From Acinetobacter phage vB_AbaSI_3, in the sequence record PQ382034.1: a stretch of DNA of 64,000 nt. One strand, written 5' to 3'. The position numbers and the translations under genes were made by a program. The notes beneath the pieces are model-generated. The model had not been told where the DNA came from, searched no databases, and worked only from the letters and a program-made list of their open reading frames with translations. Positions 40,363-45,421 of the stretch are shown piece by piece (position 1 is the first letter of the stretch; each line of letters opens with the position of its first letter).

Positions 40363-40995
40363 TTACATACCTTTGAGTGCACAGAACTCTACAGCTTCTA
40401 CAAATTCTTTGTCATCTTTAATTGACATATTATTTGCAGCGCATACTGGCAATAATTCTTTGAATCGTGGATCATTACGATACTCAGTACCTTCATAGTT
40501 TTCTACTATTTTAGGGTAAACTGTGTTAAATCGATCTTCCGAATTAAAGTTTGCCTCTTCTTCTGGTGATAACTCTAGGCCTTGTCCGGGTTCGTCAGCG
40601 CGTGGAATTTTATGACGCTGTGCTTCTGGTATAACTGAATAGTTTCTTAAAGAATTAGTTGCACATTCTCTGACATTTGCCTGGTATTCGGATAGAACAG
40701 TCGAGCCATAGTCAGTTGATGTGTCAATATTTGACAGCATACTGTCATAATTCTTACCGCAATAGTAGATAGCTTTAAATCCATTTGTGCCATAACGTTC
40801 AGCTAAGTCGTATTCCCAGTCGAATTCTAAATCGAATCCTTGGATATTGCCATCGACTTTAGACAAGTCAACGTATGCTTTATTTGTTTGAGATGTAGGA
40901 AGTGGCACTGTACCAACATCTGATTCTTTAGATAAACTAGGCTCTGAACATCCTACTAATCCGATAATTGATGCTACAATGAATAACTTTTTCAT
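40363..40995 (-). CDS. lipoprotein (lipobox LVGC)
   Basis: MKKLFIVASIIGLVGCSEPS gives signal peptidase II cleavage before the Cys. Confidence 0.55.
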   Translation of the reverse strand: MKKLFIVASIIGLVGCSEPSLSKESDVGTVPLPTSQTNKAYVDLSKVDGNIQGFDLEFDWEYDLAERYGTNGFKAIYYCGKNYDSMLSNIDTSTDYGSTVLSEYQANVRECATNSLRNYSVIPEAQRHKIPRADEPGQGLELSPEEEANFNSEDRFNTVYPKIVENYEGTEYRNDPRFKELLPVCAANNMSIKDDKEFVEAVEFCALKGM

Positions 40996-41035
40996 GGTTA
41001 TCTCTTTTGTGTATTTGATAGTTTAATTATACCAA

Positions 41036-41044
41036 ACTTGATCT
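41036..41044 (-). promoter_or_regulatory. early promoter, extended -10 (TGGTATAAT)
   Basis: The reverse complement of attatacca lies 41 nt upstream of the lipoprotein start. Confidence 0.4.
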
Positions 41045-41066
41045 ATGGTGTAAATAGTTTTGACAA

Positions 41067-41094
41067 AAAAATAGGACTCAATTGAGTCCTATTT
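41067..41094. terminator. hairpin aaaataggactcaattgagtcctatttt
   Basis: A 10-bp stem flanked by A-run and T-run, i.e. a bidirectional rho-independent terminator shape. Confidence 0.45.
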
Positions 41095-41099
41095 TGCCT

Positions 41100-41340
41100 G
41101 ATGGTAAGTTCATCAGGTCTTACAAGCCCTTAAAGGAACTTAATCTGGCAGGCACTGAACGAATCGAACGCTCGTTAATGGGGTTGGAGCCCACTGTAAT
41201 AACCACTATACGAAATGCCTGTGGCGGAAAGCAGTGTAATCGAAACACAACCGAATTAACAGTCCACTCGCTTAGCAGGCGGTGCCAATCACCCTATTGG
41301 ATTACTTTCCTTAGAATAAACATAATGATGTGACAAGCCA
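41100..41340 (-). ncRNA. candidate structured non-coding RNA region (GC-enriched, multiple local hairpins) adjacent to the tRNA array
   Basis: The region contains hairpin cctgatggtaagttcatcagg and other local stems, has higher GC than its surroundings, and has no convincing ORF (the + ORF 41082..41333 has no SD and odd composition). T4 carries stable RNAs C/D near its tRNA genes. Confidence 0.3.
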
Positions 41341-41688
41341 TTGATTTTGGCGTTGTATATTATTGGTGAGGCGGCGAGAACGTTCTTCATCTTCTTTGCG
41401 ACGTTTTTCTCGCTCAGCCTCTTGTCTTGCAATTCTTTTACGTGTCTCTTCCTCAATTGATCGTTCACTATGGCCACTATATCGTGGAAATCCAGTGCTA
41501 TACGAAGGTGAATCAAACCCCGTTCCATTACGCATTGTCATTTCATTCATGCGTCTTGAGAAATCAACATATTGAGAAACGCTCATATTTCCTCCAAGGA
41601 ATATGGTGGAGTGTGATGGAATTGCACCATCCTAATCCTGCTCTTCAGGCAAGCGCTAATCTATCTCAGCTAACACTCCAAAAGTAAA

Positions 41689-41765
41689 TGGTCTCCGTAA
41701 AATGATTTGAACATTTGACCCTATCGTCCCAAACGATATGCTCTACCAGACTGAGCTATACGGAG
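41689..41765 (-). tRNA. tRNA-Pro (anticodon TGG), CCA encoded
   Basis: Hand-folded: acceptor CTCCGTA/TACGGAG, D arm GCTCAGTCTGGTAGAGC, anticodon loop TTTGGGA, T arm AAATGTTCAAATCATTT, ACCA 3' end. Confidence 0.75.
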
Positions 41766-41766
41766 A

Positions 41767-41861
41767 TGGCGGAAGGTGAGGGGAACGATCCCTCAAGGCG
41801 TGTCACCACGCTCGACTGATTTCAAGTCAGCTGCCGTCGCCAGCCATCGGCTTGACCTTCC
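41767..41861 (-). tRNA. candidate type-II tRNA-Ser (anticodon TGA) with an atypical T-loop
   Basis: Acceptor GGAAGGT/ACCTTCC + G + CCA, anticodon arm GCTGA-CTTGAAA-TCAGT, long variable arm GCGTG-GTGA-CACGC. The T-loop ATCGTTC is non-canonical. Confidence 0.45.
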
Positions 41862-42086
41862 AATATTTTTCAATTCTCACTTAAGGCGGAGGAACACCTA
41901 AATTGTCTTGTGTAGAATGTCCTTTTATACTTTCGAGCATTCTACCACTCAATAAGTAAATCTTGAAGTTTAGTACATTTAACGAGTTGATACTTCAACA
42001 AGCTCATAAACAAGACAATAAAAACATGACGACCTAGGAATTTACGCCATTAGGACACCTAGGTCCATTTACGTCATTTTTGAATT

Positions 42087-42163
42087 TGGCTCCCCGCGGT
42101 GGGTTCGAACCACCGACCTCCAGATTAACAGTCTGTCGCTACTACCAACTGAGCTAGCGGGGA
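42087..42163 (-). tRNA. tRNA-Asn (anticodon GTT), CCA encoded
   Basis: Acceptor TCCCCGC/GCGGGGA + G + CCA, anticodon loop CTGTTAA, T arm GGTGGTTCGAACCCACC. Confidence 0.7.
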
Positions 42164-42170
42164 ATAATGT

Positions 42171-42250
42171 TGGAATCACCCGGAGGAATCGAACCTCTCA
42201 CTTCCTTCCCACTTTTTAAGTATCTGCTTAGAAGGCAGATGTGGGGGCGA
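42171..42250 (-). tRNA. tRNA-like element: Arg-type anticodon hairpin (TCT) plus canonical T arm, but no recognisable D arm (possible pseudo-tRNA)
   Basis: TCTGC-CTTCTAA-GCAGA hairpin and GAGGTTCGATTCCTC T arm with a CGGGTGA 3' acceptor strand. The 5' half does not form a cloverleaf by eye. Confidence 0.3.
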
Positions 42251-42269
42251 GCGACATAAATTCTTAAAG

Positions 42270-42340
42270 TTCTGGCACGAGGAATCGAACCTCGGTGACT
42301 GGAGTACAAAACCAGCATAATACCATTATATGACGCCAGA
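42270..42340 (-). tRNA. tRNA-Thr (anticodon TGT), CCA not encoded; acceptor stem extended by a 10-bp leader/trailer duplex
   Basis: Acceptor TCTGGCG/TGCCAGA, anticodon loop TTTGTAC, T arm CGAGGTTCGATTCCTCG. The flanking gttcttaaagt / actttaagaa extend the acceptor stem to 17 bp. Confidence 0.65.
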
Positions 42341-42656
42341 ACTTTAAGAACTTTTGATAATATTATTTATACAACCATAAAGGCACCGTCATGACCACTC
42401 ATCAAGAACACAGTGAGTTAAAACTTTTTGTGATGAGATTAATAAGGCCTAATCGAAAACATTTGAACTTTGCTAAATAAAAACTTTGATCTTTAAGATT
42501 TTAGCTTTGAACTTTAGCATTGGGATAATGTACAGGATTCGCGCTTGGGAAACCTATATCATCATCAAAGTTCTATAACCTTAGAAGTTAGCCGGATTTA
42601 GGAATACCGGCTCGAACCCTCTACAGTTTTTGATCATGACGATTAAAATTTACCTA

Positions 42657-43223
42657 TCAGTCGATAACGATTGTAGGATTTGTTTCAGTTAAAATTGCAT
42701 CGAATTCAAGATCGAAGAAATCAATTGTAGATTTGAGCTCATCAATTTGTTCTTGAATTTCCATAATTGTAGGTTTTTCTCGTTTTTCCATTAATTGCTT
42801 GAGCTCATCATCGTGTGCAGCTTTAGACAATTTAACTTCGTAATCACGTTCGATGTTAGCAAATGTAGCACGAGCACTAGCTAGCTCTTTCACTAAACGT
42901 GTATACAAAGCTTTAAGTCGAGGTAAAATATGTGTACGATACGTTAATGCATCGTTGATAGACATTTGTTCTTTGCCTACGGTTACCATCGTTTCAAAAT
43001 TTGCTTTATTGACCTTTTTGCGAAGATCAAATTCTGCATCAAGTTTGTCTTTAATTGATTGTATGTTTTTACGAGATTTGTCAACAAATTCAGCAGTTTT
43101 GATTCCAGTGCTAATCTCTACACCATTACGGAATACACCGCAGAATGTCATTTCACGAAGATTTTCGTCGAAAGACACTTTGTTGCGTTTAAGTGTTACT
43201 AATGCACGAGCGATGGTAGTCAT
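42657..43223 (-). CDS. hypothetical protein (188 aa)
   Basis: ORF track entry. Confidence 0.45.
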   Translation of the reverse strand: MTTIARALVTLKRNKVSFDENLREMTFCGVFRNGVEISTGIKTAEFVDKSRKNIQSIKDKLDAEFDLRKKVNKANFETMVTVGKEQMSINDALTYRTHILPRLKALYTRLVKELASARATFANIERDYEVKLSKAAHDDELKQLMEKREKPTIMEIQEQIDELKSTIDFFDLEFDAILTETNPTIVID

Positions 43224-43299
43224 TCAAATTTCCTCTAATCAAAATAATCTTTAATTTATGTAGTTAATTATATAACATAAATCATTAAAAGCCTTTGCT

Positions 43300-43536
43300 T
43301 TACGAATAAGTTTGTGTTGGTTCATAAAATAAACGTTCTTTCAACATTCTGTCGAGCTTTGCAATTGCGGCAGATCGGTTAAGGTACTGTGAACGTTTAT
43401 TTGCACTTTCGGCAATTAAACCAGTTGGTAAATGAGTAACACGTACTGCATTAAAAGGCCGATTGACCCATCGGCGTGCACCACTTGTTCTATACTCATC
43501 AATTCTCAATTCACTAGGTTTGAATGAGTAATCCAT
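43300..43536 (-). CDS. ArfB/RF-H-like peptidyl-tRNA hydrolase-domain protein with the GGQ motif replaced (SGARRW)
   Basis: RTSGARRWVNRPFNAVRVTHLPTGLIAESANKRSQYLNRSAAIAKL parallels E. coli ArfB [20 protein letters not shown]...YRSQELNREAALARL. The DNA was re-read to confirm GGQ is replaced by ARR. Confidence 0.6.
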   Translation of the reverse strand: MDYSFKPSELRIDEYRTSGARRWVNRPFNAVRVTHLPTGLIAESANKRSQYLNRSAAIAKLDRMLKERLFYEPTQTYS

Positions 43537-43549
43537 ATCAATATTCTCA

Positions 43550-43792
43550 TTACTTCAATTTAATTTTGGCTTCAAATACGTAGCGATAATTGTTATCACA
43601 TAATATTTCAGCTCGTTCATATGTTGTGGCCATTCGCAATACTGCTCCAGTATATGAAACGATTGCAAAAACACAATCAGTTGAATCCGGTGATGCGATA
43701 TCACCAACTTTAAAACGAAGTTTTCTATAAGTATATTTATCATCATACTTACATAAGAATTTGGCTAAACTTAACGAGAATGTGAATCTCAT
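43550..43792 (-). CDS. hypothetical protein (80 aa)
   Basis: ORF track entry. Confidence 0.4.
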   Translation of the reverse strand: MRFTFSLSLAKFLCKYDDKYTYRKLRFKVGDIASPDSTDCVFAIVSYTGAVLRMATTYERAEILCDNNYRYVFEAKIKLK

Positions 43793-43898
43793 AACTTTAC
43801 CGTCTTCGTTAAAAATTCCATAGATGCTTCGTTGAGAAGTTTTATCTATGCAGTTTCGACAGATCTAATGTTTCATATTTTTTCCTCATTAAATTAAA

Positions 43899-43976
43899 TG
43901 GTACATGACCTCGGACTCGAACCGAGAGGCTCTTGTTTCTAAGACAAGAAGGTATACCAATTCCCGTCAGTCATGC
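43899..43976 (-). tRNA. tRNA with anticodon TAG (Leu-type reading, CUA/CUG), short variable arm, enlarged D region
   Basis: Acceptor GCATGAC/GTCATGT + A + CCA, anticodon arm TCTTGT-CTTAGAA-ACAAGA, T arm CTCGGTTCGAGTCCGAG. Confidence 0.5.
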
Positions 43977-43977
43977 A

Positions 43978-44053
43978 TGGTGGATACTGGGAGTGCTTGC
44001 ACCTCCAATCAACTACGTTGTCCGCTGCTTTACTATTTAAGCTAACAGTACCC
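43978..44053 (-). tRNA. tRNA-like element, 76 nt, correct acceptor and ACCA end but non-canonical T-loop and no clear anticodon arm (possible degenerate tRNA)
   Basis: Acceptor GGGTACT/AGTATCC + ACCA. It is packed at 1-2 nt spacing between the flanking tRNAs. The T region GGAG-GTGCAAGCA-CTCC lacks the TTC motif. Confidence 0.3.
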
Positions 44054-44055
44054 AA

Positions 44056-44131
44056 TGGAGACGTCGACTGGACTTGAACCAGCATCGTCACGGATTTGCA
44101 ATCCGTCGTATAACCATTCTACCACAACGTC
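44056..44131 (-). tRNA. tRNA-Cys (anticodon GCA), CCA encoded
   Basis: Acceptor GACGTTG/CGACGTC + T + CCA, anticodon arm ACGGA-TTGCAAA-TCCGT, T arm GCTGGTTCAAGTCCAGT. Confidence 0.65.
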
Positions 44132-44138
44132 TTAAACT

Positions 44139-44213
44139 TGGTGGGCCCAGGGAATTTCGAAATCCCAACCTTCAGATTATGAGTCTGCTGCTCTGCCTTT
44201 GAGCTATAGGCCC
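44139..44213 (-). tRNA. tRNA with CAT anticodon (Met, or Ile if lysidine-modified), CCA encoded
   Basis: Acceptor GGGCCTA/TGGGCCC + A + CCA, D arm GCTCAAAGGCAGAGC, anticodon loop CTCATAA. Confidence 0.7.
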
Positions 44214-44222
44214 ATTTAAATT

Positions 44223-44297
44223 TGGTACTCGTGACCAGAGTCGAACTGGTAACCTAAGACTTTAGAGGTCTCTGCTCTACCATTGAGCTACACGAGT
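44223..44297 (-). tRNA. tRNA with predicted CTA anticodon (amber-reading suppressor-type), canonical cloverleaf
   Basis: Acceptor ACTCGTG/CACGAGT + A + CCA, D arm GCTCAATGGTAGAGC, anticodon arm GAGAC-CTCTAAA-GTCTT (U33 and A37 in place), T arm ACCAGTTCGACTCTGGT. Confidence 0.5.
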
Positions 44298-44345
44298 ATA
44301 AAAGTAACTTTTTAATATCAACTTCTCTTAATTGATATTAAAAAG
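44287..44345. promoter_or_regulatory. 18-bp perfect inverted repeat hairpin (gtaactttttaatatcaa...ttgatattaaaaagttac) at the upstream edge of the tRNA array
   Basis: A perfect 18-bp stem with a 10-nt loop, directly 5' (in the minus-strand sense) of the first tRNA; possibly a processing or attenuation structure. Confidence 0.35.
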
Positions 44346-44381
44346 TTACCTCAATTAAGAGGTAACCCGAGGTAATTCAAA

Positions 44382-44657
44382 TTATTGAACCAAACCTAAT
44401 TGAGCAGCTTCTTCATAATCCGATTGTTCGATAGCATCTAAGATCGTATCAAATGATTCATCAACAATAGTTTGAATGACTTGTCCATTTCGAGCTTCAA
44501 ATGTTACAGCTACTAAGCCGTTTTCATATTGTAAGAGGCCAATGATTTTAGCAGCATCAAGAACAAAACGGCTAACATTTGTGTTTTGTTCAACAGCGCG
44601 AGATACAGTAAGAGCAATGCGAGTAGCCATGATGTTTTCCTTTAAGGTTGAGTACAA
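44382..44657 (-). CDS. hypothetical protein (91 aa)
   Basis: ORF track entry. Confidence 0.4.
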   Translation of the reverse strand: MYSTLKENIMATRIALTVSRAVEQNTNVSRFVLDAAKIIGLLQYENGLVAVTFEARNGQVIQTIVDESFDTILDAIEQSDYEEAAQLGLVQ

Positions 44658-44663
44658 AAATAT

Positions 44664-44879
44664 TTATTCAGCAGTTTTTGAACGTTTTTCAATAATTGCT
44701 GAGATTAATGCAAAAATCATTGAGATTGAAATAAATTTTAAAGATGTTAATCCTAAAGCTTTAATTTCAGCATTAGTCATGAATATACCGAATACCGCAG
44801 TAGTCAATGCAATTACCATGCCAACGAAAAAGATCCAATAGGCAGAAGTTTCAAAAAATTCAATAACTTTAGCATTCAT
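44664..44879 (-). CDS. small membrane protein (71 aa, 2 TM)
   Basis: Hydrophobic segments WIFFVGMVIALTTAVFGIFM and ISMIFALISAII. Confidence 0.4.
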   Translation of the reverse strand: MNAKVIEFFETSAYWIFFVGMVIALTTAVFGIFMTNAEIKALGLTSLKFISISMIFALISAIIEKRSKTAE

Positions 44880-44965
44880 GATAATTTACTCAATGATTTA
44901 TTTGATAAAACTATAATAACACAATTAATTTGCGATGTAAACTGCTTTATGAAATAATTTTCAAA

Positions 44966-45421
44966 TTATGCAGTCCACTCTAAATCAAGATCTTGTACGT
45001 ATTCACTTGCAGCAATAATCGGGTTGCTAATGAAACCTACCTTTGGCAACTCACGTTGTCCAATATCATATGATAGTGTAACATGTGGTTGATAGTCAGG
45101 AAAATCATAAGTTGCACCTAATGCCATTGCATATTTAAAGCGCTCATGAAGATAATCTGAATCAATGAGTATAACAAGAGCTCGTTCACCTGTTTTAGTG
45201 TCAAAAACCTTTAACTCACCGGTAACACCAATTTGTTCGCCTATCAACTGTGGCTGATAAGGAATTTTCACCCGAGAATATGCAATTGTGCAATGCAATT
45301 TGTCTCGCGGGACAGGCTTGTAGAGATCCAATGATTTTTGGATCTCTTGTAACAAGTCTAATGTTTCATCAGCGAAATTGATTGCGGCATAAGTACCTTT
45401 GCCAACTTCACTTAGTTTCAT
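44966..45421 (-). CDS. 2H-phosphoesterase superfamily protein (LigT/CPDase-like), in the gene 57B position
   Basis: Two H-x-T/S-x motifs are present (HCTIAY and HVTLSY) in a 151-aa protein. Confidence 0.5.
   Translation of the reverse strand: MKLSEVGKGTYAAINFADETLDLLQEIQKSLDLYKPVPRDKLHCTIAYSRVKIPYQPQLIGEQIGVTGELKVFDTKTGERALVILIDSDYLHERFKYAMALGATYDFPDYQPHVTLSYDIGQRELPKVGFISNPIIAASEYVQDLDLEWTA

Follow-up and report, generated by a model that had tools for sequence, protein, structure and literature searches.

The subject of this work is a gene of 78 codons in Acinetobacter phage vB_AbaSI_3 (sequence record PQ382034.1), of which a stretch of 64,000 nucleotides, in what follows the window, was analyzed. 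The phage is T4-like (Straboviridae, Twarogvirinae, Lazarusvirus) and the gene lies within an array of nine phage tRNAs, as counted by ARAGORN; the 1.8 kb surrounding it show 96.5-99.3% identity in the 30 matches listed, for example in phages PhaR5, Berthold, KARL-1, Kimel and Konradin. Its product, with the full translation MDYSFKPSELRIDEYRTSGARRWVNRPFNAVRVTHLPTGLIAESANKRSQYLNRSAAIAKLDRMLKERLFYEPTQTYS, corresponds to domain 3 of the release factors RF1 and RF2, the domain that in those proteins carries the catalytic Gly-Gly-Gln (GGQ) tripeptide, and in the phage protein this tripeptide is absent. Coordinates of the gene, of its motifs and of the features around it are collected in Table 1.

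Homology and Fold

Profile searches had been set beforehand as the check on the family assignment, and the release-factor (RF) family is recovered with Pfam, PHROG, NCBIfam and RF2. With 45.8 bits the protein passes the gathering score of the Pfam RF-1 model (PF00472), which is set at 35 (E = 6.9e-12; aligned to positions 6-71 of the 116 in the profile), and at E = 3.3e-20 its residues 5-73 align with positions 2-72 of the 73 in PHROG 20323, 'RF-1 domain peptide chain release factor'. The NCBIfam models rank in the order prfA (1.6e-13), prfB (7.2e-13), prfH (1e-9) and ArfB (0.0042); the corresponding scores of 50.3, 48.3, 38.2 (profile positions 103-166 of 200) and 16.8 bits are far under the full-length cutoffs of 423, 370, 166.65 and 100, respectively, because only a single domain is present. 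The best HMMER matches among PDB sequences are residues 226-291 of E. coli RF2 (E = 3e-13), followed by RF1 and mitochondrial RF1, with PrfH near the bottom of the list, and the identity to residues 226-296 of E. coli RF2 amounts to 42-47%. A recent capture from the host was considered and rejected, the Acinetobacter RF1 and RF2 sequences (from bacterial-looking records) being ∼42-47% identical to the phage protein, no higher than E. coli RF2.

An AlphaFold2 model calculated from a 61-sequence alignment has a mean predicted local distance difference test (pLDDT) score of 81, with a mean of 53 for residues 71-78, and consists of three strands (residues 10-15, 30-35 and 41-44) followed by a helix (50-71). 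Foldseek superimposes the model on domain 3 of ribosome-bound RF2 and RF1 with a template modeling (TM) score of 0.80 and a root-mean-square deviation (rmsd) of about 2 Å over 71 residues (TM 0.80 and 2.1 Å for RF2 in 8p16), and ranks PrfH 43rd and ArfB 47th. The phage protein and domain 3 of RF1/RF2 (PF00472) have in common the fold of three strands and a long helix as well as the VRxTHxPTG and RSQ..N..A...L motifs, whereas domain 1, the codon-reading domain 2/4 with its PxT or SPF motif, and GGQ are all missing from the phage protein.

An earlier reading of the window, made from its sequence only, had described the gene product as an ArfB/RF-H-like homologue. The assignment to the release-factor GGQ domain stands; the ancestry does not, since RF1 and RF2 score far better and the ArfB insertion and tail are absent. 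ArfB (YaeJ), ICT1 and mtRF-R are likewise small, with one release-factor hydrolase domain and no stop-codon recognition, but ArfB has GGQ, a helical insertion and a basic tail of ∼40 residues that is used for ribosome binding, all of which the phage protein lacks. In the alignment ArfB carries two inserted blocks, of 6 and 18 columns, that are absent from both the phage protein and RF2, and only seven residues follow the end of the modeled helix at residue 71, which leaves no ArfB-type linker and basic tail. PrfH differs as well, in that the phage protein misses the PrfH model including its codon-recognition-like domain. A gene for the RNA ligase RtcB adjoins that of PrfH, and the genes directly next to the phage one are uncharacterized ORFs of 80 and 188 residues. 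The window protein is a stand-alone RF1/RF2-type domain 3 and not a derivative of ArfB.

The Catalytic Loop

Release factors read S-G-x-G-G-Q-H-V-N at the catalytic loop, and the window protein is one residue shorter there, with S-G-A-R-R-W-V-N. That the 78-residue reading frame has ARR in place of GGQ was correctly seen from the sequence, and the DNA, agt ggt gca cgc cga tgg, is as it had been quoted; the shortening of the loop comes in addition. HMMER puts the loop gap at either of two positions, so that the change is aligned either as GGQ to ARR with H to W or as GGQH to RRW, and GGQ is absent in both.

In release factors neither the conformation of the loop nor catalysis is possible without the two glycines of GGQ (work cited in PMC6514570). 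It is conceivable that the protein is still a peptidyl-tRNA hydrolase that works with different residues, perhaps the arginine pair and the tryptophan of the loop, instead of GGQ. A GenBank label, 'putative peptidyl-tRNA hydrolase', says as much, and about half of the viral mini release factors that we obtained from IMG/VR (see below) keep GGQ, so that hydrolysis is plausible as the ancestral phage function. However, both glycines are missing here from a loop that is shorter and bulky, and the residues found in their place vary across homologues (RRW, SNW, SAW, GHY, or deleted), leaving a surviving hydrolase very improbable.

Relatives and Selection

Acinetobacter T4-like phages of five lineages have orthologues of the gene, and GGQ is absent from all of them. 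Besides the window these lineages are represented by AbTZA1 (Hadassahvirus, 53% identity, loop KGASNWIN), AB1I1T (genus not assigned, 50%, KPT--CMN in the alignment, with KPTRMN in the near-identical P0004), ZZ1 (Zedzedvirus, 41%, GKHSNWVN) and Ac42 (genus not assigned, 34%, ESQGHYLN). Acinetobacter-phage-type relatives of 74-86 residues also have FYxxTxxYS-like ends, as seen in the window protein, P0003, P0004, P0005 and P0031, with P0158 similar. Homologues in siphoviruses (Pseudomonas phage 73, LPPA15 and Xanthomonas NR08) are longer, at 121-170 residues, with differing C-terminal extensions and loops that read PGASAWVA or GSAWVPN. To our knowledge T4 itself does not carry such a gene.

When 1.84 billion representatives were searched exhaustively, the three best matches were without GGQ, as were nine further genuine ones among the top 150, including the 327-417-residue proteins P0051, P0075 and P0152; in the longer GGQ-less proteins Pfam found no fused domain above threshold, that is, nothing except RF-1. 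A profile search added P0153, P0154, P0158, P0162 and P0155, the last a protein of 129 residues (L010, 6001-6390) with two tandem release-factor domains in both of which the catalytic loop is deleted. The contig collection lists P0155 in 51 blocks. With the window protein alone as the query, a word-indexed homologue search gave two matches only, and related-locus searches with single proteins gave the same phage or nothing. Small RF-like proteins were further seen as BFVD fold matches in phages of Acinetobacter, Pseudomonas, Aeromonas, Rhodococcus, Mycobacterium and Cellulophaga. Matches from tblastn labeled 'Bacteriophage sp.', Listeria and Staphylococcus were set aside: MT835815 (L008), the sole record checked, holds an ordinary 357-residue RF1 with GGQ and is probably a bacterial sequence filed as phage.

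IMG/VR was scanned with a degenerate DNA pattern encoding VR[IV]TH.P[ST]G, and the 42 matches divide into 18 with GGQ, 18 without and 6 that are truncated or spurious. The GGQ-less proteins range from 71 to 445 residues and have very dissimilar loops, while the GGQ-positive set includes a recurrent mini-protein of 73 residues and three near-full-length release factors. A recurrent GGQ-keeping mini release factor, mostly of 73 residues (MIDIPTNDLKIEVWPISGIHERGGQHVG...; MIDIPTNDLKIEVWPISGIHERGGQHVGTYPGVRITHLPSG...), is found in the related viral contigs L017, L023, L031, L033, L037, L043, L053, L056 and L058. These mini-proteins are like the window protein in size, in being a stand-alone domain and in their viral setting, and differ in that they retain GGQ; from their sequences they may be active stand-alone hydrolases.

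The four close Lazarusvirus orthologues differ at 14 codons by synonymous changes only and at 2 by amino-acid-changing ones, and the ratio of nonsynonymous to synonymous rates (dN/dS) is 0 to 0.07. A recent inactivating mutation, which the sequence-only reading would have suspected had the relatives kept GGQ, can be dismissed, as it is missing from every orthologue and also from the closest homologues in phages. The purifying selection and the absence of GGQ in relatives together establish that the loss is old and adapted and no recent knockout. Truncation to one domain and destruction of the catalytic motif are also what one would see if a release-factor gene captured from a host were decaying without function; such a remnant is contradicted by the strong purifying selection and by intact orthologues with invariant core residues in deeply diverged phages (34-53% identity), and is hardly credible. 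The GGQ-less domains are 45-52% identical to cellular release factors, about as high as among themselves, which fits a single origin (monophyly) as well as a multiple one.

In order to define the pattern of constraint, 33 non-redundant GGQ-less domains were compared with 184 GGQ-bearing domains, the latter mostly bacterial release-factor fragments from protein searches. The columns of the SGxGGQHVNxTxSA loop, together with Q45 and Q50, are conserved at 0.86-1.0 in the GGQ-bearing set and at 0.15-0.45 in the GGQ-less one, where the His after GGQ gives way to an aromatic residue (W in 48%). Conservation in the GGQ-less set is 1.0 for R32 and L61, 0.97 for H35 and G39, 0.94 for T34, 0.91 for V31, P37 and N53, 0.88 for A57, and 0.79 for R16, R48 and S49. 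The loop flanks are relaxed in viral GGQ-keeping proteins too. Judged from these alignments, the pattern is that of a family which appears to have given up catalysis and the specific contacts to the peptidyl-transferase center and to have held the scaffold. The identity to cellular release factors is consistent with constraint on a docking scaffold and could equally reflect maintenance of the fold.

Genomic Context

Table 1. Positions of the gene, its motifs and other features, in the window unless a relative is named.
Feature	Position	Strand	Remarks
Coding sequence of the GGQ-less RF domain 3	43300..43536	-	78 aa, ATG to TAA, stop TAA at 43300-43302; open reading frame (ORF) listing
Degenerate loop, codons 18-25, S-G-A-R-R-W-V-N	43462..43485	-	AGT GGT GCA CGC CGA TGG GTC AAT
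Strand-turn core, codons 31-39, V-R-V-T-H-L-P-T-G	43420..43446	-	common to RF1/RF2
Start of long helix (alpha7 of release factors), codons 48-53, R-S-Q-Y-L-N	43378..43395	-	conserved RS...N
C-terminal tail, codons 69-78, F-Y-E-P-T-Q-T-Y-S	43303..43332	-	low model confidence
tRNA with amber-reading anticodon CUA	44223..44297	-	ARAGORN; Rfam 71 bits; ∼0.7 kb upstream, same array
CUA tRNA copies in relatives	L001 2094-2168; L004 2062-2133; L060 897-970
80-aa ORF	43550-43792	-	upstream neighbor
188-aa ORF	42657-43223	-	directly downstream neighbor
Acb1 anti-CBASS (cyclic-oligonucleotide-based antiphage signaling system) 2H phosphoesterase	44966-45421	-	151 aa; Pfam PF23474, E = 3.6e-48; 1.4 kb from RF-like gene
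Terminator-like hairpin	43458-43475	-	inside the coding sequence
tRNA	41607-41679	-	Rfam, 49 bits; missed by ARAGORN
tRNA-Ser	41767-41861		ARAGORN; absent from Rfam list at gathering threshold
tRNA-Leu	43899-43976		ARAGORN; absent from Rfam list at gathering threshold

The tRNA with a stop-codon-reading anticodon that had been pointed out next to the gene is indeed there: the CUA tRNA is the top-scoring tRNA in an Rfam scan of positions 40500-45000 and belongs to the gene's own array in four of five Acinetobacter T4-like lineages (the window, AbTZA1, AB1I1T and ZZ1); it was not found in the Ac42 array. The copies are divergent, with a mean column identity of 74% and differing acceptor stems, and the one in AB1I1T is unannotated in GenBank. 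Gene and CUA tRNA co-occur in these arrays; a functional link between the two is conjectural. TAG is almost unused as a stop codon: of the 66 ORFs in the window that have 100 or more residues and do not overlap, only 2 are terminated by it. Seven candidates for TAG recoding in the window were rejected because all of them lie inside longer ORFs in other frames.

Its place in the array suggests that the protein might act off the ribosome as an RNA module, binding tRNA or peptidyl-tRNA at the 3' CCA end or elsewhere so as to protect, chaperone or sequester the phage tRNAs, for example against toxins that attack tRNA ends. In each of the five Acinetobacter phage lineages that were examined the gene is embedded in a tRNA array, and among 39 other viral loci 6 have tRNAs in their flanks; most homologous loci, however, are without a nearby tRNA. 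The gene of P0155 lies directly downstream of one for an HD_4 (RelA/SpoT-type) hydrolase, and enzymes of this type can remove the pyrophosphate that toxic alarmone synthetases attach to the CCA ends of tRNAs. The window protein is basic (pI 10.1, net charge +6), as would suit RNA binding, but the net charge varies from -2 to +6 across the family, and the constraint has been lost exactly on the loop that in release factors touches the CCA end. There is precedent in MRPS35, where an inactive bacterial-type release-factor domain has been re-used as an RNA-associated structural protein (PMC6514570). On balance we find this role somewhat unlikely.

Further along the window lies the gene for Acb1 (Table 1), an ORF that is labeled 'RNA ligase' or '57B' in related phage records. 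The P0155 gene, in addition to following the HD_4 hydrolase gene, is near those for NADAR, a Phd-type antitoxin and an Acb2/Tad1-like protein, and the small ORFs grouped around that of P0153 include a gene for the restriction-alleviation protein Lar; these three surroundings are typical accessory or counter-defense regions. Such a setting would agree with a protein decoy, in which the mimic of RF1/RF2 domain 3 sequesters a host protein, be it the PrmC glutamine methyltransferase or a defense or toxin protein that senses or acts on release factors. A mimic would be expected to resemble its model, as these domains do with their 45-52% identity to cellular release factors; the RF1-PrmC complex 2b3t is among the fold matches, and a decoy requires no conserved partner gene. 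The substrate of PrmC, however, is the GGQ glutamine, which is absent here, and a hypervariable loop fits poorly with mimicry of one host surface. In addition, PADLOC defense models gave no match for the window protein or a siphovirus homologue, so no known defense system with a similar domain emerges. We regard a decoy as unlikely.

Two further observations concern the immediate surroundings of the gene. The 188-residue ORF directly downstream receives the label 'tail fiber protein' through PHROG 1491, though it is located in a tRNA/accessory region; its Pfam matches are weak and below threshold (some to coiled-coil families), it has no PDB match, and it is better conserved than the RF-like gene, at 77% versus 53% between genera. 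The label looks doubtful. Inside the coding sequence of the RF-like gene a terminator-like hairpin, GCCGATGGGTCAATCGGC and then CTTTTAAT, falls exactly over the RRWVNRP codons; the region has four terminator-like sites where 1.4 are expected, and this one may be due to chance.

Discussion

As far as alignments and models can tell, the gene very probably encodes a functional protein that comprises a release-factor domain 3 and nothing else in its 78 residues, with a degenerate and shortened loop, and that almost certainly does not hydrolyze peptidyl-tRNA. What it does instead is a matter for more tentative proposals. Among these we favor, with reserve, a role as a non-catalytic competitor or plug at the site on the large subunit that is used by the GGQ domain of RF1, RF2 and ArfB, which would damp release or rescue. 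The retained release-factor core would dock beside the peptidyl-transferase center, the phage protein would occupy the large-subunit A-site position of the RF1/RF2/ArfB GGQ domain without catalysis, and peptide release or ribosome rescue would be hindered during infection. The phage might gain from this in two ways: fewer peptides would be released prematurely from ribosomes that tRNA- or mRNA-attacking host defenses have stalled, and the amber-reading tRNA of the phage would achieve more read-through. To bind stably, the protein would probably depend on its basic surface (+6), on the conserved tryptophan, on the F-Y...S tail at the C terminus or on a partner. In favor of the plug speak the well-kept core, the surroundings of tRNAs and counter-defense genes, and the rarity of TAG stops in a phage with an amber-reading tRNA.

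Several points weigh against such a plug. The main caveat comes by analogy from ArfB/YaeJ, whose isolated GGQ domain fails to bind ribosomes, the C-terminal tail being needed (PMC3950681); the phage protein has neither this tail nor a codon-reading domain. The loop that in release factors faces the peptidyl-transferase center is unconstrained across the phage family, a difference from RF1 and RF2, and docking therefore cannot reproduce the release-factor contacts there. The residues that are retained could serve the stability of the fold alone, and a stoichiometric blocker of ribosomes is costly. Nor does the context help: no in-frame TAG recoding is evident in the window; the siphovirus members have no tRNA in the 5-kb stretches examined, and the tRNA link is therefore not general; and clustering of all ORFs at 44 loci found neighbors common to close phages only and none across phage groups, so that no partner is apparent.

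Loss of catalysis with retention of the fold has parallels. PrfB3 of plants is a catalytically inactive release-factor homologue. A 2024 Nature paper on bacterial hibernation factors of a new family also came up among the literature matches for a missing GGQ. GGQ-less members of the archaeo-eukaryotic release-factor superfamily have been argued to be non-catalytic binders of the A site, and in baeRF-1 both the length and the sequence of the loop are unconstrained (PMC6514570). MRPS35, Dom34/Pelota and baeRF-1 resemble the phage protein in that the catalytic glutamine is gone and the fold is kept, and they serve for non-catalytic binding to ribosome or RNA, as the phage protein may do; they differ in being cellular or organellar and in usually having extra RNA-binding domains, and none is a single domain of a phage. 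Dom34 and baeRF-1 belong, moreover, to a separate, convergent superfamily.

The plug can be extended to a more general proposal, namely that GGQ-less release-factor domains are widespread phage modulators of translation which block release or rescue and which, together with the amber tRNA, would reprogram termination in the TAG-poor Acinetobacter T4-like phages, for example by forcing read-through of host TAG stops or by shielding stalled phage translation from abortive release. We hold this wider version to be quite doubtful.

The gene itself cannot be called new in the sense in which it had been presented, since it is already annotated in dozens of Acinetobacter phage records, under 'RF-1 domain peptide chain release factor', 'peptide chain release factor 1/2' or 'putative peptidyl-tRNA hydrolase'. 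The new element is that the protein is a phage-borne and almost certainly inactive form of a known domain family; literature text searches found no paper describing the phage family or its loss of GGQ, and the word 'phage' never occurs in a broad survey of release-factor evolution (PMC6514570). Both 'peptidyl-tRNA hydrolase' and 'release factor' are probably wrong as labels. The sequence is very likely incompatible with hydrolysis, and the annotation in dozens of phage records should therefore be changed.

If our reading of the protein holds, phages would have repeatedly kept a catalytically dead peptide-release domain and with it an undescribed means of interfering with termination, rescue or tRNA-directed defense, comparable, among the bacterial-type domains, to what Dom34/Pelota and other inactive homologues are in their own superfamily. 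The 78-residue protein is small and easy to test, and it is found in phages that are studied for the therapy of Acinetobacter baumannii infections, where unexplained accessory genes matter.

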